DNA from: a phage
DNA length: 64,000 nucleotides
Sequence record: OZ346212.1
Strand: one strand, 5' to 3'
Shown: positions 21 to 62,897 of the stretch, in pieces
Layout: every line of letters begins with the position of its first letter
Position numbering within the stretch: the first letter of the stretch is position 1
The notes under the pieces: generated by a model
What the model was told of the DNA's origin: nothing
The model's database searches: none
Seen by the model: only the letters and a program-made list of their open reading frames with translations
Program-made: the position numbers and the translations under genes

Positions 21-2444
21 ATGAGCATGTGGTCGTTCGACTTTGAGTCATCCGGTTTGCTGGAAGACCCAGATCTTTATTATCACTGCGGCCTGTTTAA
101 AGAGCTGAATAAGAACCGTTTTATGCTGTTCCTTCCTCTAAATGACCGCACACACTACTCCGAGGAGGATATAGAAAAGGCTAAGAACTTCATTCTGGCA
201 AAGAAAACTCTTTATAAAGATTTTGAAGTTCGCATAGCAGATTTTTCAGAGTTGGAAGGTTGGCTTACAGGAAATTCTGACTGGTCACCAACAGCTTTGA
301 ACTGCCATAACTGCTACAGTTATGACTTTATGCTGATGGAAAGATTATCTGGTATTCATTTTGATATGTTCCGTGATCCTAAGTGTATGGGGACTATCAA
401 CGATCACCAGGTTAACCTGTTTGATACGTTGGCGATGAGCCGAATCTTGTGGCCTGATCGCCCTTTACCAAAAGGTTGTCCGGACTCTGTATTCAACCCG
501 GTTACTAAGAAAATGCAGCCTGTTGGTCCTCACGGCCTTATGGCATGGGGCTACGCCCTTGGTAACCAGAAAGTTCAAATTGATGACTGGCGCGATCTTC
601 CGTTATGGAAGTATGTGGATCGTGTATTTGAGGACGTTATCATCCAGGAGCTGCTCTGGAAAGAGCTGGTAGCGGAATCAAAAGGTGTATTCTACGGCAA
701 ATCTGACATGCAGAACTTTATGTACGATCCTGCCAAAGAGAAGCCGAAAGGGTTCAAGAAGATCACCTGGAAGAACGCATTACGTCGAGGCATGTTGCAG
801 CACTTCCTGATGGAGCTGCAGGCCCGTCAGGGTGTATACTTCGACATAGATGGGGCTATTGCTTTACGTGACCGCTGCGATGCGTGGATGAAAGAGATCG
901 CTGATCGTGTTGAACCACAACTGCCTTTAAAAGAGCTGTCAATGTCTCAGCGGCCCAAGTTCCCTGAAAAGCCGTTTAACCAAGATGGGACAATCTCTAA
1001 TAATGGTTGGAAATGGTTAAAAGATAAGCTTGGCTATCCTGTGGACATGAGTGCTTTAGAGTTCAAAGCCCCACCTAAGCGAGCATTTACCTCTACAGGA
1101 GATGTCAGTAAGATGGGGATAAAATGGTGTGAAGAGATGGGCTGCAAAGACCACGATAAGATGGCTGATTTCTTGAGAGGTTATATTAAGGGCACCTCCA
1201 CACCACAACCTTTACCTAAAGAGCTGATGGATCAGGCAATAAGCGATCTGCAACAGAAGCGAATGCCTGACTGCAAGATACCTATGAAAATCAGCAATCA
1301 GGACGACATTAAGCGATACCTGATCAGTGCTGGTTGGCTTCCGACAATGTGGAGAACTAAGGATGTAACTAAGGACAGCAAGAAGAAAGCTCTACCTGAT
1401 GCAGATGTTGATGCACGAGTATATGCATACATGGACGAGCTTTTAGAGTCAGAGTATTGTGACCTAATTATCAACTTCTGGAACAAAACTGATGCTAAGT
1501 TTCAGACAACAGTGCACAAGTTCCGAAGCTTTCCTAACTCCGAAAGGATTAAAAAGGAAGTGTTCGGGAAAATACGCAGAAAAGCCAGGGCACTTATTAC
1601 TTCTCCGCAACTGAAAGATACGTTTGGACACCTATGTCCGAATCTTGAAAAATTGAACGGAGAGATGGCTAAAGATATCGTCTTGTGGTTATCATTGCGA
1701 AACCGCAGATCGGTCCTTGATCCAATCAAGGAGGATAAGGTTGATACTGGTCTTCTTAATCACCCACGTTTGAAGATTGACCATAAGCTTCCTGCTAAAA
1801 GCTCTGGATTAACAAACACTTCCCGACAGAAACACAGTATTTGTGCAAACATGCCTAAACCATCTCCTAAAGTGGTTATGGGTAAAGAGATGCGTAGCTT
1901 GTGGGGTGTTCCTCCTGGATACTTTGAGATCGGTATTGACGGGTCCAACTTAGAGCAGCTTATCGGGGCTTGGGGTGCCTTTGAGTTCGACAACGGCTTG
2001 TACTATGATGTTGTAAGTAACGGGGACGCACACCAAAACAATGCTGAGGCATATACAAAAGTAGCAGGCAGAGAGGTGTCTCGTAACGACGGTAAACCTA
2101 TCACGTATGGGGTTATGTACGGGGCACAAAAAGATAAAGTTGCAGATATGCTGGATATCTCCCCAGAGTTGGGGCAAAGGGTGATCGATGCACTTTGGGA
2201 TGCCAACCCAGGTCTTAAGGGGCGCAAAGAGGATCTGGAGAAATTCTGGGAAGCAACAGGTAAGAAGTTTATCTACTCTTTTGATGGTCATGCTATCTGG
2301 ACCCGATCTAAACACTCTTTACTTAATGCATACCAACAAAATGGCGGCGCATCGTTGTGTGACTTAGTTGGGATACTCATGCACCATCAAATGGTGAAGC
2401 GTGGGTGGTACGATGAAGGTGTTCGTCGTATTATCTATTACCAT
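21..2444 (+). CDS. DNA polymerase, family A (T7 gp5-like), exon 1: 3'-5' exonuclease domain plus polymerase motifs A and B
   Basis: AAGGAG SD then ATG 21; N-terminus SFDFESSGLL...YHCGLF resembles T7 DNAP Exo I; motif A-like IDGSNLEQL and motif B-like RNDGKPITYGVMYG; frame closes one codon after ...RRIIYYH, exactly where motif C (HDE) is expected. Confidence 0.8.
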
Positions 2445-3286
2445 AAATAACATTGTGGCTTCGTGCAGTGATGCACGTCGAAAACCTCTTTAATTGACGG
2501 GAAGGCTAAGTTGACTTTTACACCTAAACATGGTAAAAGCTCAATATGCTAATCCGCAGCGAAGACTAAAGGGGTGTAGTTAAAATGGCTAGATCAGTTG
2601 AGTATCACGGATATACCGTGTTTGATGATGGAACAATACCTTTATCGAAACGTGATCATACAACAATGTTTTGTTTTGATAATGGTCGAGGTTACCTTTG
2701 CGTAACCATGTTCATCGAGGGGAAGCAGTGCACAAAAGGTGTCCACCACTTGGTTGCTGAATGCTTTGTATCAAACCCTGATCCTGAAAGGCTCACATGG
2801 GTGAACCATAAGGACGGAAACAAATACAACAATGCATACTGGAACCTTGAATGGACCACCCCTGGTGGAAATATCAAACACGCTTATGATAATGACCTCA
2901 GAGTAAGGCCAGTCGGTGAGTATAATGCCAACGCTGTACTGACCGAGGATGAGGTAACGGAGATTTGCGAACTGTTACAAAGTGGTTTACGACAATGCGA
3001 GATTAGGGATCTTGGGTATCCTTATGAGACGGTCAGAGCCATAAAGCAAAGAAGACAGTGGAAACATATCTCTAAAAACTACACCTGGTAGTAACGTTCA
3101 GAGACTATCGAAAGCATAGCGCCAACATAAATTGGTGCGAAGAAGCGAGTAGAGTAGACCAGCAAGTGCGGTCGAAATGGGAGGTGCCTTGGTAACAAGG
3201 TAGTGAGATAGTCCGATCCATACAGGAAACTGTATGGCTGTGCACGTAATGGTGCGGGGTAGCTTAACGACCTACCTGAACTATTG
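2445..3286 (+). mobile_element. putative group I self-splicing intron in the DNA polymerase gene (boundaries approximate)
   Basis: Last exon-1 nt is U, last insert nt is G; joining 2444|3287 restores ...YYH|DEYQLQV (motif C); insert carries a free-standing HNH ORF flanked by 140 nt and 195 nt of non-coding sequence. Confidence 0.55.
2585..3091 (+). CDS. HNH homing endonuclease (intron-encoded)
   Basis: HNH signature HHLVAECF...VNHKDGNKYNNAYWNLEW; complete ORF lying inside the interrupted polymerase gene. Confidence 0.8.
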   Translation: MARSVEYHGYTVFDDGTIPLSKRDHTTMFCFDNGRGYLCVTMFIEGKQCTKGVHHLVAECFVSNPDPERLTWVNHKDGNKYNNAYWNLEWTTPGGNIKHAYDNDLRVRPVGEYNANAVLTEDEVTEICELLQSGLRQCEIRDLGYPYETVRAIKQRRQWKHISKNYTW

Positions 3287-3640
3287 GATGAGTACCAACT
3301 TCAAGTCCCTGACACACCGAAGTATAAGACTGTGTACACCTTCGACACAATCGAAGAACTGGAAGCATTTAAGGCAGAGCAGGAGGCCAAACTTCATGTG
3401 TTCGACGGTCATAAGTACAAAAAGGCACGCAAGGATGAGGACGGAAACGAAGTGGTTGACAGAGACGGAAACACGGTGTACGATCCTATCCTGAACGATG
3501 ACGGAAAGCTTGAACTTATCTGGAGCCCTGTGGGTGAAATGGTGGTGCATTGCTTCTGGCAAGCTTCTAAAATGATGGGCGTCCCGTTCCAGATCACGGG
3601 TGAATACCTGTGTGGTCGTAATTGGGGTGATTGTCACTAA
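3287..3640 (+). CDS. DNA polymerase exon 2 (motif C to C-terminus)
   Basis: Frame reads DEYQLQV... supplying the missing HDE; C-terminus ...GEYLCGRNWGDCH parallels the T7 DNAP C-terminus ...GKMGPNWAICH. Confidence 0.7.
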   Translation, partial: DEYQLQVPDTPKYKTVYTFDTIEELEAFKAEQEAKLHVFDGHKYKKARKDEDGNEVVDRDGNTVYDPILNDDGKLELIWSPVGEMVVHCFWQASKMMGVPFQITGEYLCGRNWGDCH

Positions 3641-24432: not shown

Positions 24433-24828
24433 TTACTGAAACAGTGCGGATAAATTACCTTCTGGTGGGAACTTATCTGCCAAAAACGGTGTTAGCACAG
24501 TAGCCTTCTGAAGATCTGGGGTCCACTCGTTGTTCAGAACATCCCAGTAGTACGCAATGTTGCTGTGTGGGTGCCGCATTACGAACTTTTTCCCTTCGTA
24601 GTCGTCTGAAACCTCTACAGAAGAAATAACAACAGAATCTTCAAGGGTTTCTTCATAGAAAGATCCCCCTTCAAATTTCCAACGAGATGCAAGAGCCCCT
24701 GCCTTGAACGCTGCAGATAACGGACTGTCGGCAAGAACATACATTTCTTGCACTCTGTCGCTGCGATCTTTGCTTCTTACGTTGTATACAGTATCTGAGC
24801 TATACTCAACACGGTATAGGCTTACCAT
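24433..24828 (-). CDS. hypothetical protein, paralog of 26640-27038
   Basis: Shared YYWxxxxxxWTP...ATxLTPF segment. Confidence 0.55.
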   Translation of the reverse strand: MVSLYRVEYSSDTVYNVRSKDRSDRVQEMYVLADSPLSAAFKAGALASRWKFEGGSFYEETLEDSVVISSVEVSDDYEGKKFVMRHPHSNIAYYWDVLNNEWTPDLQKATVLTPFLADKFPPEGNLSALFQ

Positions 24829-25160
24829 TACCGCACCTCCTCAATAACTTCCACATCTGAACCTACCACAAATGCAAAAGGACAGGTTTCATGAAAGACA
24901 TCTGGATCGCCGCCAAGCTTGCTAACAATCTCTCCACCACTAATAAACACAAGCTCACCGATATTCATCAGATTGCTGAAATAGTAACCATAATGATTAA
25001 AGAATGCAGCAGGGTCAGGTAGACTGGTAGCCTCAAGCACTACATCGGTTGAGGTTACTTTCTTATCATAACCTCTCGCCTTTTGAGATGCAAGATCTGC
25101 AGAATCCTCAGGAGACCGGAGATGCACAGGAATTGTTTCACCAATAAAGCGTACTTTCAT
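24828..25160 (-). CDS. small acidic protein, MKVK...EIVE paralog family
   Basis: Internal start MKVRFIGE...; C-terminal AFVVGSDVEVIEEVR matches family; track ORF extends to 25187. Confidence 0.55.
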   Translation of the reverse strand: MKVRFIGETIPVHLRSPEDSADLASQKARGYDKKVTSTDVVLEATSLPDPAAFFNHYGYYFSNLMNIGELVFISGGEIVSKLGGDPDVFHETCPFAFVVGSDVEVIEEVR

Positions 25161-25164
25161 ATTA

Positions 25165-25428
25165 TCACCCAACAACCATAGCTTCAAAAGGAGTCATGAA
25201 CGAATAAACGGCATCATCATCTGCTTCAGGGAATGCTCCCAAAGACTTCATATCTGAACCCTTGACAAATACAAGGTTTTGATCAAAGGCTTCTTGGGGG
25301 TCAATCCGATACATATTTCGTAGAATATCGCTTACCTCCTCATCAAGAGGTGAGTATGCTGTGCACGTTTTTCCGATCAAGCTTTGAGAATCAGGGTATC
25401 CACCTGAAGTTTTAAAATAAACAATCAT
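25165..25428 (-). CDS. small acidic protein, MKVK...EIVE-related
   Basis: VFVKGSDMKSLGA matches family core VLVKGKDLLAAGA. Confidence 0.55.
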   Translation of the reverse strand: MIVYFKTSGGYPDSQSLIGKTCTAYSPLDEEVSDILRNMYRIDPQEAFDQNLVFVKGSDMKSLGAFPEADDDAVYSFMTPFEAMVVG

Positions 25429-25926: not shown

Positions 25927-26247
25927 TCATTCTCCAAAGTCAATCTTTACTTTGCCTTTCCCCTTACCTTTCTTTCCACCGCATTTAGCCAGCTGACGTG
26001 CTGCAACATCTACCATACGGTCAGTTGCCTCGTAAGCATCACTGCCTTTAGCCTTGGCAATAACTTCTTTTCCAGAATTGTCAAAAATGAACGCCATAAC
26101 TTCCTGGTGATCATTTTCAACTTTTACACTTACACGTGCATAGTTAACAGAGGGATGTAAACGCTCCAGCTTGGACATTTTGCGGGAAATAAAAGATACC
26201 ATACCTTCTGTGATTTCTACATTGTTGCCAGTGATTTCAATTTGCAT
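25927..26247 (-). CDS. hpf: ribosome hibernation promoting factor / RaiA-family protein
   Basis: MQIEITGNNVEITEGM...KLERL...VKVE...GKEVIAKAKGSDAYEATDRMVDVAARQL aligns along its length with E. coli HPF MQLNITGNNVEITEAL... Confidence 0.8.
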   Translation of the reverse strand: MQIEITGNNVEITEGMVSFISRKMSKLERLHPSVNYARVSVKVENDHQEVMAFIFDNSGKEVIAKAKGSDAYEATDRMVDVAARQLAKCGGKKGKGKGKVKIDFGE

Positions 26248-26331
26248 AACGTGTTCCTTTTAAGGAAGAGGGAATAACTATCTCTCTTTGAAAACAATGA
26301 TACTAAATCTGAAGCGTTGTGTCAACAGTTT

Positions 26332-26622
26332 TTACAGCTTGTTGTCGATAGTTTTTAAAATATCCACAGCAAGATCTGCCATTTTTCGAACATACTCTGC
26401 AAACTCAACAGGATCCTTGATCAAAGAATTCACAGGGTCGTACCCTAGAGCGTTTAAAATGGCTGCAGCATCTACAACCTTCTCATCATTTGCGAAGATC
26501 TCTCCGTCAAACTTGTAGGTCTATTTTGAGTCAACCTTAGCAGAGCAGGGTTTGTCCATGCTTGTTACACCATCGTCTTTAAACTCTCCTGCGTTATCAA
26601 TATTTAGAATTAAATCCATCAT
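26332..26622 (-). pseudogene. small ORF interrupted by an in-frame TAG (amber) after codon 33
   Basis: GAGGTG SD then ATG ATG (26622); TAG at 26521-26523; same frame stays open for 62 further protein-like codons (TYKFDGEIFANDEKVVDAAAILNALGYDPV...) without any start codon. Confidence 0.4.
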
Positions 26623-26639
26623 GGTGACACCTCACTGTT

Positions 26640-27038
26640 TCAGTTTAGCTTTTCTTCAACAACCCCATAACTTGGGGCAGAGTCAAGAGCTTTCTGGTTT
26701 AAAAGTGGCGTAGCAGAATCTGCAAACGGTGTCCAAGTTTTTGTTCTGGAATTCCAGTAATGCTTCACTCTGGAATCTGGATGCACTATAACAAAAACTT
26801 TTTCACTTGTCAACACATTAATTTCTTCTACACCCTTGCTGATAATTTCTCCGTCATAGCCCCCAGTCTGGTATCCTTCGTACCAGGTTCTTGCATAGGC
26901 ATAGCCAGCCTGCCAGCATGCAGCCTCCTCCGAGGTGGAGACTACGTAGAAGTCTTTCTCAAATTCCGGAATACGCCCTTGCTTTACGCTCCAAGCTCCG
27001 CGAATTTTCATTGTTACTTTGAAAAGCTTGTTCTTCAT
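26640..27038 (-). CDS. hypothetical protein, paralog of 24433-24828
   Basis: Shared HYWNSRTKTWTPFADSATPLL segment. Confidence 0.55.
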   Translation of the reverse strand: MKNKLFKVTMKIRGAWSVKQGRIPEFEKDFYVVSTSEEAACWQAGYAYARTWYEGYQTGGYDGEIISKGVEEINVLTSEKVFVIVHPDSRVKHYWNSRTKTWTPFADSATPLLNQKALDSAPSYGVVEEKLN

Positions 27039-27039
27039 A

Positions 27040-27294
27040 CTACCGCTCTACAATCTCTACGTCTGTTCCTACACCGAAGGCATAGTAATGTTCTTCCCCA
27101 AAGTAATACTTGGGGACACCCGCTTTGATCAGATCTAACCCGCGAATAAATACCACACCGTGTGATACAGTGGAATGCTTCTGACGCACAGGATCGTTGT
27201 CAGGCAACCATTCAAAGTACACCGCAGGTACAACCTTTCCCTTCAGGAAGGATTGTCCCAAGTAGACGTTAGAATCAAGAATTTTAACCTTCAT
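27040..27294 (-). CDS. small protein, MKVK...EIVE paralog family
   Basis: MKVKILDSNVYLGQ...GLDLIKAG...YYAFGVGTDVEIVER. Confidence 0.65.
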   Translation of the reverse strand: MKVKILDSNVYLGQSFLKGKVVPAVYFEWLPDNDPVRQKHSTVSHGVVFIRGLDLIKAGVPKYYFGEEHYYAFGVGTDVEIVER

Positions 27295-27511
27295 TCTCGT
27301 CCTCCACTATCTCTGCATCCTCACCAAGGGCAAAGTTGTAGGTCCACTGGCTGTCAAAGCAGTCCTGAGATGCACCAGCGGCAATAAGATCTGCACCTTT
27401 TATTTTTAAAAGGTCAGGATAATCTTCGTTAGGGATAGCGGTAAACACTTTCCCCACTAAGGGCTCCTGACCAATATAGAAGCTTGAATCTAAAACTTTA
27501 ACTTTCATCAA
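27284..27511 (-). CDS. small acidic protein, MKVK...EIVE paralog family
   Basis: MMKVKVLDSSFYIGQ...GADLIAAG...FALGEDAEIVEDE; closest paralog of 27040-27294. Confidence 0.65.
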   Translation of the reverse strand: MMKVKVLDSSFYIGQEPLVGKVFTAIPNEDYPDLLKIKGADLIAAGASQDCFDSQWTYNFALGEDAEIVEDENEG

Positions 27512-28088: not shown

Positions 28089-28388
28089 AATTCAGCCCCG
28101 CATAGACATAATCACTATAAATAGGCAAACAATGAATCCGAATGCCACGCCACCCATAAACGTTAATATTGATGCAATCATAGTCAATCAGCCTCGCCTG
28201 GCAACTCTTCTACCTTAACATGCCGAAAAGTGTTACCGTAATGGTTGATCCATGACATCAGCTCACTTTCTTGCTCTTCCTCTGGGATGAACTCTCGAAT
28301 ACTGACAAGTTTTAAGAAAACCTAATCACAATCTGCACCCATTCTACCAGACAGACAATAGTGCTTCATAAAAACCCTCCCGCCCGGT

Positions 28389-36263: not shown

Positions 36264-37532
36264 TCAGCAACCACAACTTCCGTAGTGCTTAACTCGCTCG
36301 ATAACTTCCGCTTGCTTACCTTTATTGTAAGGACGGGAGTTAGGACTGGAAAGGTATCCAGACACACGTCGAATTACACTGATCGTTCCCTCTTCATGGT
36401 TTCCACACTCTGGGCATACAAAGCCTTTAGCTGTTGCACTGAACTCACCAGAGAAACCACACTTGAGACATTTATCCACAGGTTGGTTAATACCAAAATA
36501 CATAATGTGTTTATACCCGAAGTCAACAAGAGCCTCTAAAGCATCCAGGTTGTTTTTCAGGTTAGGTGTTTCTACGTATCCGATGTTGCCACCAGAGGAT
36601 ATCATAGCAAAACCTTCTTCATACTCCCACTTATCAAAAGGAGAGCTATTGATCCATACTGGCTGATGGAAACTGTTGGTGAGATATTCATGCTCGTGCT
36701 TCAACACTTCAGGATATTCACGATCCAGACAGGTTGCAGCTTTATAGCATAGACTCTCAGAAGGGGTGCCGTACAAACTAAACGCTAGTCTACTTTTCTT
36801 CTTGTATCGCTCACAAGCATCTCTCATGTGCTGAAGTATTCCAAGAGCTAAAGCCTTGTCACCCTCTCTGCCCAAAATCTGACAGGTTTCATACACACCA
36901 ATATACCCAATACTGATGGAAGCGTACCCGTCATAGAAGAGTTTATCAATACTCTCTTCAGGATCCAGGCGAGCAAGAGCGCCTTCACACCACATGATAG
37001 GGTTCTGCCCTGCCTTAGTGCCTTTCAGACGGTTAACCCTTACAAGGTGAGCTTCATATGCCAAATCCAGATACTCGTCAAGAACGGAAAAGAAATCAAC
37101 ACCTTCCGTCTTAGCTTTTGCCGCAATCATTGGCAGGTTAAGACTAACAACACCCAAGTTGAATCTGCCGAGGTATTTCTCCTCACCTGTTTCCAAGTCA
37201 TTGTATTTGCTAAGAAAACTCCGGCAACCCATGCTCGTTACTTTACCATCTGTCGAGCCTGTCACTTTACGATTTAGTGGAACAGAAACAAAGTCAGGAT
37301 AAATCCGCTCTGCAGAGCATTCCAGAGCTAATCGTTTCAAATCATAGTTAGGATCTCCAGGGTTCATGTTGACACCCTCTTCTAGGAAGAACAACACTTT
37401 AGGGAACACAGGTGTGATACGTTCTTCACCAAGACCCATTTTGTGGACTTTCAAGTAGTTTTTGGTAATCATTCTACCAAAGACTGAGGTGTCCAGACCT
37501 AAACTTAATGTGATGAATGGAGTCTGCTGTCT
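36264..37532 (-). CDS. nrdD: anaerobic ribonucleoside-triphosphate reductase, exon 2 (glycyl-radical half)
   Basis: In-frame upstream extension RQQTPFITLSLGLDTS...; MGCRSFL active-site Cys, RRVSGYL glycyl-radical motif, C-terminal CxxC...CxxC. Confidence 0.75.
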   Translation of the reverse strand, partial: RQQTPFITLSLGLDTSVFGRMITKNYLKVHKMGLGEERITPVFPKVLFFLEEGVNMNPGDPNYDLKRLALECSAERIYPDFVSVPLNRKVTGSTDGKVTSMGCRSFLSKYNDLETGEEKYLGRFNLGVVSLNLPMIAAKAKTEGVDFFSVLDEYLDLAYEAHLVRVNRLKGTKAGQNPIMWCEGALARLDPEESIDKLFYDGYASISIGYIGVYETCQILGREGDKALALGILQHMRDACERYKKKSRLAFSLYGTPSESLCYKAATCLDREYPEVLKHEHEYLTNSFHQPVWINSSPFDKWEYEEGFAMISSGGNIGYVETPNLKNNLDALEALVDFGYKHIMYFGINQPVDKCLKCGFSGEFSATAKGFVCPECGNHEEGTISVIRRVSGYLSSPNSRPYNKGKQAEVIERVKHYGSCGC

Positions 37533-38332
37533 CCTCCCTGTGTTTCCACAGGGCCAGACTATCTCTTACTCTACTTCAATAAGATAATAACCCTTTATTG
37601 TGAGATGCTTACCTTCGGCATTTCCTTCGATAGCCCTATGAACGTTACCTACGTTCAAATTTAAGGCTTTTGCACAGGCATAGAGTGAAGGATATTCACC
37701 CACCAAGGTTTTACCTTTGTATGCCTGCACTTTCCTATAGCACTTACCTGGACAAAGTCCTGTTCGGAAAGCATGTCTCTTATTATCTTCCGGCAAAACC
37801 CACTCTAGGTTAGACGGATGATCATTCAATGTATTGCCATCTTTATGATTCACTTCCCAGTTTTCAGGGTCTTCTGGGACATCCGGCAAACAATACAAGG
37901 CAACAATCCTTGAGGTTTGGATTCGAATCTTTTTACCTTTGTGGTTGAAAGAGTACATATAACGGCGTTTAACATGCTTGTTACCTTTTCCATAACCTCC
38001 CCACAATATTGGGTGTAGCATTCCACGTTTTCCGTATACGTTTCCAACCTCATCAATCACATAGTTTGATTCTTCACCATTAAGAATGATCTTTTTCATA
38101 GAGCCTCTCCATTTCGAAGTTAGTATTTCAACTAACCCCTACACTACTTGGTTCAGAAATGTTTGTCAAGCATTTCTGCCTTTCGTTAGTCGTTACAACC
38201 GTTCCAACTCCTGTAAGAACTAGTCACGGGATTGGCATAGCTTTCGCCTTAGCGTTCCCCGTTAGCCGGATTTACCGACCCCTCTTATGAGGTTAGGAGA
38301 GTTTTACAACGGCCAGTTTGTTAACCGTTGAC
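37533..38332 (-). mobile_element. putative group I intron (T4-like core) in nrdD, HNH ORF in 3' region (boundaries approximate)
   Basis: 5' portion contains CUAACGGGGAAC...CAAUCCCGUG, matching the T4 td intron core AAACGGGGAAC...CAAUCCCGUG; exon 1 ends in U, insert ends in G; splice restores INTLTS|RQQTPF. Confidence 0.6.
37566..38099 (-). CDS. HNH homing endonuclease (intron-encoded)
   Basis: WEVNHKDGNTLNDHPSNLEW HNH signature; lies between the two nrdD halves. Confidence 0.8.
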   Translation of the reverse strand: MKKIILNGEESNYVIDEVGNVYGKRGMLHPILWGGYGKGNKHVKRRYMYSFNHKGKKIRIQTSRIVALYCLPDVPEDPENWEVNHKDGNTLNDHPSNLEWVLPEDNKRHAFRTGLCPGKCYRKVQAYKGKTLVGEYPSLYACAKALNLNVGNVHRAIEGNAEGKHLTIKGYYLIEVE

Positions 38333-39184
38333 AGAAGTTAACGTGTTGATTTGATAGAGCAAAGTCTGCATGCTGTCAAATACGTCTTTATCTGTCATTT
38401 GCATTGCAACAGTTTCAGCATCCGGCAACCAATGTTCCTGGCAAAATTTAAGGTTCTTCTCATAGGTTGCTTCAGCATACTGTGCCAGATAATGATCAAT
38501 ATGGCTCATAGTCTGACCACCATATTGAGCACTAGCTACCGCACTAGAGATTTGGCTAAGGATTGTTGTTGCAACCCCTATTGACTTCGGCTTACTGACA
38601 TGGGCGTTACCAATGTTGAATCCGTTTTCCAACATATCTGGATAATTTACCAAACAACAGTTTGTTAACGGACTGATCAAGTAGTCAAGATCATGCACAT
38701 GGATGAATCCTTTATTGTGCTCTTCGGAGACACGGTCTGGCAGGATCTGTGTTGATGCAAGGTGTTTGCTAAGAATACCTGCAAGCAGGTCGCGATGAGT
38801 GTGTACATGATTAGTAGGCTTATTTGCGTTTTCTTTTGTAAATTCATCACAAGTTCGATCCAAGAAGCCACTAATATCTGCAAGCAGTTTTCCACCTGCC
38901 TCTCTGTTATTATCTCTTGTCTGTCTATACTGGATGTATTCTCTGGCTGCACATTTTAAACCCATATCCATAAGAGCATCTTCAACAAGGATATGGATAT
39001 TTTTTACAGAGATCGTGCACTGGTCGGTTGGTAGATTGTTAGCAACAACTTCATTAACCGCGCAGGCGATCCGGTAAGCTTCTTCTTCAGTATGTCCAGA
39101 CTCAAGTAAGGCGGACTCTGCCGCCTTGATCACCTTAATTCCGTTATAGAACTCTTCTCTACCGTCCCGTTTTACAACTTTCAC
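38333..39184 (-). CDS. nrdD: anaerobic ribonucleoside-triphosphate reductase, exon 1 (ATP-cone and N-terminal half)
   Basis: MKVVKRDGREEFYNGIKV ATP-cone start; ends ...LYQINTLTS just before the intron. Confidence 0.75.
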
Positions 39185-62084: not shown

Positions 62085-62159
62085 GCCCTGTTAGCTTAGT
62101 GGATAAAGCAGCGGCCTTCTAAGCCGTTGACACTGGTTCGAGTCCAGTACGGGGTGCCA
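62085..62159 (+). tRNA. tRNA-Arg (anticodon UCU)
   Basis: Hand-folded cloverleaf: acceptor GCCCTGT/ACGGGGT, anticodon loop CTTCTAA, T-loop TTCGAGT, encoded CCA. Confidence 0.8.
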
Positions 62160-62163
62160 AATT

Positions 62164-62250
62164 GGGGAGTTATCCCGTAGAGGTAGCGGTGTAGACTGTA
62201 AATCTATTGTCATTGCGACTCGGGTGGTTCGACTCCACCACTCCCCACCA
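62164..62250 (+). tRNA. tRNA-Tyr (anticodon GUA), long variable arm
   Basis: Acceptor GGGGAGT/ACTCCCC, anticodon loop CTGTAAA, T-loop TTCGACT, CCA; overall like E. coli tRNA-Tyr. Confidence 0.8.
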
Positions 62251-62364
62251 AATTTATATTTTTAGATGCATAAATAATACAGATAATGGCATTGATATTT
62301 ATCGTCGTTTATACTAGTCACTAACTGCTCGAAAATCAGTGTCATTATCAGTATTATTTATAAA

Positions 62365-62455
62365 GGAGGGTAGGGAGCAATGGTGCTCAATCGGTCTTGA
62401 AAACCGTCCCGTTGAGGATGACTCGATGATGGTTCGATTCCATTACTCTCCGCCA
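62365..62455 (+). tRNA. tRNA-Ser (anticodon UGA), long variable arm
   Basis: Acceptor GGAGGGT/ACTCTCC, anticodon loop CTTGAAA, 20-nt variable arm, T-loop TTCGATT, CCA. Confidence 0.75.
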
Positions 62456-62553
62456 CATTGTTGACCTTGTAATTAAGCGAAAGTCGGAAGCAGAACCGGA
62501 TTATCAAATGTTACAGTCGTCATCGCCGACTAGCAACATGGTCAACATACTGA

Positions 62554-62650
62554 GCTAGGTAAGCCCTTTGGCAAGGGCGAGGATTTTTAATCCTGAAAAT
62601 AGACGAGGTAGTCGTTGAATACATAGGTGGTTCGATTCCATCACCTAGCA
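62554..62650 (+). tRNA. atypical 97-nt tRNA-like gene (possibly Lys-UUU with about 29-nt variable region) or pseudo-tRNA
   Basis: Perfect acceptor GCTAGGT/ACCTAGC, D-arm GCCC...GGGC, hairpin with loop TTTTTAA, extra hairpin ACGA-ggtag-TCGT, T-arm GGTGG-TTCGATT-CCATC; no encoded CCA. Confidence 0.35.
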
Positions 62651-62657
62651 CCTTTTT

Positions 62658-62733
62658 GCTGATGTAGCACAATCGGTAGTGCAATTGATTTGTAATCAAT
62701 AGGTTGTAGGTTCAAGTCCTGCCATCAGCACCA
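62658..62733 (+). tRNA. tRNA-Thr (anticodon UGU)
   Basis: Acceptor GCTGATG/CATCAGC, anticodon stem ATTGA/TCAAT with loop TTTGTAA, T-loop TTCAAGT, CCA. Confidence 0.85.
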
Positions 62734-62734
62734 A

Positions 62735-62809
62735 GGCCCTGTAGCTGGAAGGTTCAAGCAAGCGACTCATAATCGCCAGACGGTGGTTCAATTCCACCCA
62801 GGGCCACCA
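62735..62809 (+). tRNA. tRNA-Met or Ile2 (anticodon CAU), elongator type
   Basis: Acceptor GGCCCTG/CAGGGCC fully paired (not initiator-like), anticodon loop CTCATAA, T-loop TTCAATT, CCA. Confidence 0.75.
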
Positions 62810-62820
62810 AATAGTAAATA

Positions 62821-62897
62821 CTCCGCGTAGCTCAGCTTGGTAGAGCGCCTGATTTGGGATCAGGAGGTCGAGTGTTCGAATCACTCCGTGGAGACCA
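62821..62897 (+). tRNA. tRNA-Pro (anticodon UGG)
   Basis: Acceptor CTCCGCG/CGTGGAG, D-arm GCTC...GAGC, anticodon stem CCTGA/TCAGG with loop TTTGGGA, T-loop TTCGAAT, CCA. Confidence 0.85.

Follow-up and report, generated by a model that had tools for sequence, protein, structure and literature searches.

Does a single amber codon within an otherwise protein-like reading frame mark the loss of a gene, a leaky stop, or a codon that is read by a suppressor tRNA? This question is raised by a small gene (here gene A) within 64,000 nucleotides of phage DNA (sequence record OZ346212.1), a stretch that is referred to in its entirety as the window. The original prediction, made from the letters alone, had left the choice between a recent pseudogene, low-level readthrough, and a suppressor tRNA located elsewhere in the genome.

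Gene A and its orthologs

Gene A is encoded on the minus strand, where its frame starts with an ATG at 26622, runs for 33 codons to a TAG at 26523..26521 (the reverse complement of plus-strand "cta" at 26521-26523), and remains open for 62 further codons up to a TAA at 26334..26332. Translation of window:26332-26622:- yielded MMDLILNIDNAGEFKDDGVTSMDKPCSAKVDSK, the first stop, TYKFDGEIFANDEKVVDAAAILNALGYDPVNSLIKDPVEFAEYVRKMADLAVDILKTIDNKL, and the second stop; the protein sequence resumes with TYKFDGEIF after the TAG and has TIDNKL as its C-terminal end. Reading of the sequence upstream of the start codon (26622..26620) revealed the hexamer GAGGTG at 26633..26628 of the same strand, 5 bases away. 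Translation of the minus strand thus bore out the predicted arrangement of a Shine-Dalgarno sequence, ATG, 33 codons, TAG, and 62 open codons. The locus comprises the following features.

26332..26622, minus strand: gene A, a disrupted 96-codon early gene (phrog_12029), including the in-frame TAG and the natural TAA; from the translation and the intact 291-nt CDS in relatives
26521..26523, minus strand: amber codon replacing Trp34 (TGG to TAG) of gene A; at plus-strand position 26522, relatives have C and the window has T
26524..26622, minus strand: still-translated part of gene A, 33 codons, variable N-terminal region, predicted 33-residue peptide
26332..26520, minus strand: untranslated part of gene A, 62 codons plus TAA, conserved C-terminal domain with predicted helices at residues 52-58 and 71-95
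26628..26633, minus strand: Shine-Dalgarno-like GAGGTG, 5 nt upstream of the gene A ATG; from the sequence

The earlier statement that the downstream frame has no start codon held for the vicinity of the TAG, but an in-frame GTG is present at codon 64 (26433), far from the TAG, and opens a 33-aa ORF. A restart of translation after the TAG was rejected, since no ATG, GTG, or TTG is located nearby and no more than a 33-aa fragment would result from the GTG at codon 64. Also rejected was a GGAGAG motif just 3' of the TAG, which is followed only by out-of-frame ATGs, these reaching a TAG.

A 1.2-kb query around the gene A site matched 118 phage records with 80 to 99.7% identity (one record below 90%), all of which were Vequintavirus (rV5-like) or obviously mislabelled relatives. 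The best match of the window over 24 kb was phage nomo (97.8% identity). Judged by sequence similarity, the window is part of an rV5-like E. coli phage (Vequintavirus). At the position of gene A, an intact 291-nt CDS is annotated in rV5_ev146, naswa (naswa_175), HeinrichReichert (bas58_0155), nomo (nomo_105), and MaxBurger (bas54_0156). In all five genomes the neighbours (a 123/132-aa gene and a ribosome hibernation factor gene) and the 84-nt spacer are the same, and gene A, like its orthologs, stands 84 nt upstream of the hibernation factor gene. bas54_0156 and its orthologs bas58_0155, nomo_105, and naswa_175 (PHROG 12029) represent the same gene at the same position, but have 96 intact codons instead of the TAG34 found here. 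Farther along the minus strand of the window, two overlapping small genes (27040-27294 and 27284-27511) both match phrog_5009 and hence form a tandem paralog pair.

With Trp34 restored, the repaired gene A protein matched phrog_12029 over positions 1-96 of 96 (E 7.2e-63) and was 100% identical to bas54_0156. Using tblastn, gene A was found in full length in 117 of the 118 phage records, with protein identities of 84 to 100%; the single exception is a 2.7-kb fragment. On this comparison, the open frame beyond the TAG did not arise by chance but corresponds to the conserved portion of a gene for which those 117 records have an intact copy.

Codon 34 was TGG (Trp) in all relatives examined. Gene A differs from the commonest intact allele at 1 of 291 bases, plus-strand 26522 (T for C, converting TGG to TAG), and because of this single difference the mutation appears to be recent. 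The search for the allele used a 55-nt query with the changed base at its centre, a layout that places this base within every 28-mer seed. The TAG version of the query was detected in none of the phage records, whereas the TGG control was detected in 98. The exact 29-mer with TAG was absent from IMG/VR and from the GTDB genomes (one per species), and in the JGI metagenomes the TAG allele was not found, the single contig that matched the pattern having TGG. The comparison of orthologs that had been proposed along with the original prediction thus revealed TGG in the orthologs and a TAG allele that, across the 118 phage records and three contig collections, is private to the window genome.

Alignment of the repaired protein with 36 homologs revealed that residues 1-30 are variable, while from residue 31 on most columns are at least 90% conserved. 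Pooled pairwise pN/pS, based on only five distinct alleles, was 0.54 for codons 1-30 versus 0.13 for codons 31-96. An exhaustive profile search over 1.84 billion representatives yielded only two further, distant homologs (40-42% identity), and Trp34 was invariant even when these were included. The AlphaFold model of the protein was poor overall (pLDDT 57.9), with values of 74-86 over residues 50-90 and below 50 for residues 1-30; only two C-terminal helices (52-58 and 71-95) were confident. With respect to function, Pfam, NCBIfam, and a PDB profile search gave no significant match, and a fold search in BFVD returned only the EdH4 ortholog. The original prediction had named a non-conserved downstream part as an observation that would speak against it; by both the 36-homolog alignment and pN/pS, the downstream part is instead the best conserved portion of the gene. 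The TAG would thus cut gene A just before its constrained domain. As the lost portion is the conserved one, and as Trp34 remains unchanged even in homologs with 40% identity, the peptide of 33 residues is expected to be a null.

Use of TAG and the tRNA complement

To find in-frame stops and indels, 125 annotated nomo proteins were mapped onto the window. In-frame stops were present in 2 of the 125 gene models, both of them TAG, and indels in none. A broader scan, covering all open segments of ten relative loci, added no stop within any real gene. Scoring of the stop codons in 124 of the 125 models gave 59 TAA, 54 TGA, and 11 TAG. Since it ends 11 of the 124 scored models, TAG is a working terminator in this phage.

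ARAGORN detected seven tRNAs at 62085-62897 of the window, none of them with a CUA anticodon, which confirmed what had been stated originally; their anticodons are identical to those of phage nomo. No tRNA-CUA was found in the whole genome of ECO111 5-P (136.6 kb; 98.8% identical to the window over the aligned part), which has only the same seven clustered tRNAs, or in the scanned part of nomo (24-112 kb), again with only the same seven. In view of the complete ECO111 5-P genome and the matching anticodons of nomo, the postulated suppressor tRNA elsewhere in the genome is unlikely to exist. ARAGORN reported an atypical 99-nt "tRNA-???" at 62554-62652 (plus strand), which passes the threshold of the Rfam tRNA model with 35.5 bits. 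Its anticodon loop, UUUUUAA, gives the Lys-like anticodon UUU, and its variable region has an insertion of 26 nt; nomo has an identical copy, and the tRNA is also present in ECO111 5-P. As an amber suppressor it was ruled out by its anticodon and by its identity in nomo.

If readthrough were programmed, or if TAG were reassigned by a phage suppressor tRNA or a recoded code, the 96-residue protein would be the intended product. The frame that stays open and protein-like for 62 codons past the TAG agrees with this idea. Programmed readthrough, as in the Qbeta A1 coat extension, uses leaky stops that are conserved among relatives. Gene A resembles this case in that a stop is followed by an open, coding-looking frame, but differs in that a stop at codon 34, and hence a conserved leaky one, was found in 0 of 118 relatives. 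In recoded phages (some crAss-like phages, Lak phages), in-frame TAGs are numerous, the affected genes avoid TAG as their terminator, and a suppressor tRNA is usually present. The in-frame TAG of gene A, like theirs, is located within conserved coding sequence. In contrast to recoded phages, the window has 2 in-frame TAGs in 125 genes and 11 TAG terminators, and neither the window nor the complete near-identical genome has a tRNA-CUA, the atypical tRNA with its UUU anticodon being the same in nomo. A programmed or reassigned reading of the codon is therefore extremely improbable. Of the low-level readthrough considered originally, ordinary background leakiness may occur, but nothing suggests a programmed event, as the stop is missing from all 118 relatives.

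Other genes of the window are interrupted by insertions. The DNA polymerase gene (21-3640, plus strand) is contiguous in nomo, but the window encodes residues 1-808 of the nomo protein at 21-2444 and residues 809-925 at 3287-3637. The insert at about 2445-3286 includes an HNH endonuclease ORF (2585-3091; phrog_59, E 6e-38), and a sub-threshold match to a group I intron was obtained for 2435-3236 (E 3e-8; 39.1 bits, below the gathering score of 50). In nrdD, the gene of the anaerobic ribonucleotide reductase (36264-39184, minus strand), two ORFs (36264-37472 and 38321-39184) are separated by the gene of an HNH homing endonuclease (37566-38099). Phages nomo and rV5_ev146 share this arrangement; in naswa, nrdD is an uninterrupted CDS of about 712 codons.

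Gene B and other disrupted alleles of gene A

The second in-frame TAG is located in another small gene, here gene B.

28184..28369, minus strand: gene B, a small early gene of 61 codons (phrog_2381), orthologous to nomo_111; its codon 16 is a private amber
28322..28324, minus strand: amber codon replacing Trp16 (TGG to TAG) of gene B; the changed base is plus-strand 28323

Gene B matched phrog_2381 with an E value of 3e-21. Its codon 16 is TGG in nomo and the other relatives checked; apart from this TAG, a stretch of 251 nt is identical to that of nomo. For this 251-nt stretch, no identical record was present among 114 relatives (best identity, 99.6%), and all 95 hits of the gene B 55-mer (95/95) had one mismatch. 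The ambers of gene A and gene B are 1.8 kb apart, and both are C-to-T changes on the plus strand. The 1.86-kb segment 27853-29708 of the window, which carries small early genes including gene B, is absent at this locus from MaxBurger (Bas54). This block represents a presence/absence polymorphism in an accessory region. Since Bas54 lacks the segment, gene B may be dispensable as well, as its absence suggests.

We determined the spectrum of substitutions private to the window by comparison with seven relatives over 29.7 kb of alignment columns with at least 6 genomes aligned. The 39 private substitutions comprised 14 G:C>A:T transitions, 16 A:T>G:C transitions, and 9 transversions, and resembled those of nomo, ECO111 5-P, and C12 in both spectrum and count. 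With this ordinary spectrum and no indel in the 125 mapped models, the assembly gives a clean impression. A signature of chemical mutagenesis was rejected, as the spectrum of the 39 substitutions was like that of the relatives. A Dcm (CCWGG) deamination hot spot was rejected as well: the plus-strand contexts of the two changes are GGTCCATTT and AACCCAATC, neither of which is CCWGG.

Within gene models, 32 private changes were counted, of which 19 were synonymous, 11 non-synonymous, and 2 nonsense. Nonsense changes make up 3-4.6% of random coding substitutions, so that about 1-1.5 of 32 would be expected if unselected. Depending on the transition bias, TGG to TAG accounts for 4-15% of the possible nonsense changes; the probability that two random nonsense changes are both TGG to TAG is 0.002-0.02, and the probability that both are amber is about 0.17. 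Among the relatives, one in-frame stop was found in 506 gene instances, and the only relative with a private nonsense change was C7, in which codon 5 of a gene of 81 codons is TGA. Private nonsense changes in naswa and A142, which had been obtained by approximate classification, vanished when each relative's own codons were used. The pair of TGG-to-TAG changes, a post hoc observation, is thus only slightly out of the ordinary, and chance explains it adequately.

Further disrupted copies of gene A were found in metagenomic contigs. The ENA sewage-metagenome contigs ERZ28615258 (L019 619-622) and ERZ15185785 (L021 600-603) carry a 1-nt deletion within codon 34 of gene A (AAAATGGACC to AAAAT-GACC), which results in two ORFs that overlap as ATGA, one of 33 aa terminated by TGA and one of 63 aa initiated by ATG. 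The contigs have 99.4-99.5% identity to Bas54/Bas58 and only about 95-96% to the window. Since their mutual identity is 99.7% and their coverage is low (0.39), the deletion represents a single event at most, and possibly an error. In the proteins P0033 and P0034, which are encoded on Logan contigs, in-frame deletions have joined the conserved C-terminal half of gene A to the N terminus of a gene located upstream, either the 84-aa or the 132-aa one; these fusions correspond to 26332-27294 of the window. The contig-encoded P0036 is a frameshifted copy of gene A. The locus thus appears to suffer occasional disruption in nature, in agreement with a dispensable accessory gene. For the deletion in codon 34, too, chance is an adequate explanation.

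Dispensability of gene A and weighing of the explanations

In the HIDEN-SEQ preprint (10.1101/2025.11.20.689424), transposon insertions were mapped in Bas54, i.e., phage MaxBurger (MZ501093). According to its Extended Data Table 8, 15 of 17 TA sites of bas54_0156 (101197..101487) were disrupted, and the gene was assigned to the class Non-essential, a result that refers to E. coli K-12 only. For Bas54 on the same host, the preprint gives 146 of 227 genes as non-essential (10.1101/2025.11.20.689424). In its conditional-essentiality data, the row for bas54_0156 (log2FC 0.53, p 0.58) indicates no conditional effect, while bas54_0150-0152 and bas54_0157 were strongly depleted in one comparison (log2FC -6 to -7, and -2.1, respectively) (10.1101/2025.11.20.689424). 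Orthologs of bas54_0150-0152 and bas54_0157 are located in the window at about 24433-25428 and 26640-27038, respectively, as neighbours of gene A. The tabulated depletion of these neighbours in Bas54 suggests host-specific roles for the early-gene block. Because the identical protein bas54_0156 was classed as non-essential in this screen, a gene A null would be viable without suppression.

The spacer that separates gene A from the ribosome hibernation factor gene (25927..26247; PF02482 Ribosomal_S30AE, E 4e-15) contains a promoter-like site.

26297..26325, minus strand: promoter-like site TTGACA-17-TATCAT with 11 of 12 matches; from a consensus scan, pattern match only

As a pattern match, this site suggests that the hibernation factor gene is independent of read-through transcription from gene A. 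On the same basis, polarity of the gene A amber on the hibernation factor gene is probably limited.

We conclude that the amber codon of gene A is probably the result of a genuine and recent mutation that inactivated an early accessory gene which the phage can dispense with; such an event would be of an ordinary kind. One G-to-A transition on the coding (minus) strand would have converted the invariant Trp34 codon TGG to TAG. On an ordinary host, translation would end after 33 residues and leave the variable N-terminal peptide without the conserved helical C-terminal domain. The phage would tolerate this null through the dispensability of the gene for lytic growth, and suppression, recoding, or readthrough would not be needed. 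The codon change, its uniqueness, the conservation of the lost part, the use of TAG as a normal terminator, and the lack of a tRNA-CUA support this reading, together with the dispensability taken from the published screen. Of the possibilities named at the outset, the recent pseudogene is therefore the one that agrees with TGG in the orthologs, a private allele, no further changes in the gene, and the non-essentiality of the identical protein in Bas54. Against a tolerated null speaks the fact that all other isolates retain an intact gene A under purifying selection, which implies that the gene is useful somewhere and that its loss should carry a cost in nature. Moreover, both nonsense codons of the window are the same change, and an independent deletion affects codon 34 in a sewage phage, which hints at something less random than drift.

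A different origin would be conceivable if the phage came from an amber-suppressing E. coli laboratory strain (supE/glnV44, supF) or were a laboratory-made amber or base-edited mutant. With UAG partly read as an amino acid, amber mutations would specifically escape selection, and the only two in-frame stops in 125 models are indeed both TGG to TAG, lie 1.8 kb apart in small early genes, and have the low joint probability given above (0.002-0.02). TGG to TAG via G:C>A:T is also the classic product of hydroxylamine mutagenesis and of stop-installing cytosine base editors. However, no G:C>A:T excess was present among the private substitutions (14/39), which leaves bulk chemical mutagenesis unsupported, and a chance of about 0.17 that both stops are amber is unremarkable. 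In addition, gene A is non-essential and its loss tolerated without suppression, and as Trp34 is invariant, insertion of Gln or Tyr may not restore function. The literature on amber mutants or suppressor hosts of rV5-like phages yielded nothing specific. Classical phage amber mutants (T4 am, lambda Sam7) are in essential genes and were selected as conditional lethals after mutagenesis. The gene A allele resembles them in that a sense codon became UAG by one transition, with a product that would be truncated on a sup0 host and suppressible in principle by supD/E/F; unlike them, it concerns a gene whose ortholog is non-essential, in a window without a mutagenesis signature, and the segment with gene B is absent from Bas54. 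We regard a history of suppression or laboratory construction as rather unlikely.

A sequencing or consensus error, with TGG at both sites of the true genome and both genes intact, would equally account for single-base events that are both C to T on the plus strand, and for a gene A allele found nowhere else. Yet substitution errors seldom survive into a phage consensus, neither frameshifts nor other broken genes were observed among the 125 models, the other 37 private changes look ordinarily evolved and under purifying selection, and two stop-creating errors would be a coincidence as large as the one to be explained. Such an error is distinctly unlikely, and we infer that the change in gene A is a true mutation rather than a base-calling error. 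Loss of gene A, and possibly of gene B, might also have been favoured on a particular host, for instance if the protein triggers a defence or the site is targeted. The 1-nt deletion at exactly codon 34 in a Bas54/Bas58-like sewage phage arose independently, the deletion fusions and the frameshift (P0033, P0034, P0036) affect the same locus, and the depletion of early-block neighbours in one of the Bas54 comparisons tabulated in the preprint would fit an interaction of the block with host-specific factors. These observations are post hoc and small in number, however, and the two ENA contigs amount at most to a single, possibly erroneous event. Furthermore, bas54_0156 itself had no conditional effect in the corresponding row of the preprint (log2FC 0.53, p 0.58), and no defence system or spacer is linked to gene A. 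Selection for the knockouts is hence very unlikely.

Given a tolerated loss of function as the preferred explanation, gene A should be annotated as a disrupted copy of a conserved hypothetical gene rather than as a pair of ORFs or a site of recoding. The allele would then provide a natural confirmation that genes of the bas54_0156 type are dispensable for lytic growth. It is unlikely that the two Trp-to-amber codons and the codon-34 deletion reflect more than chance, i.e., recurrent selected inactivation (defence escape) or a history in an amber-suppressing host; if this were true, it would mark two Vequintavirus early genes as host-interaction factors. Should these coincidences be non-random, genes A and B would be candidates for host interaction or for triggering defence in a phage group that is used for therapy and biocontrol.
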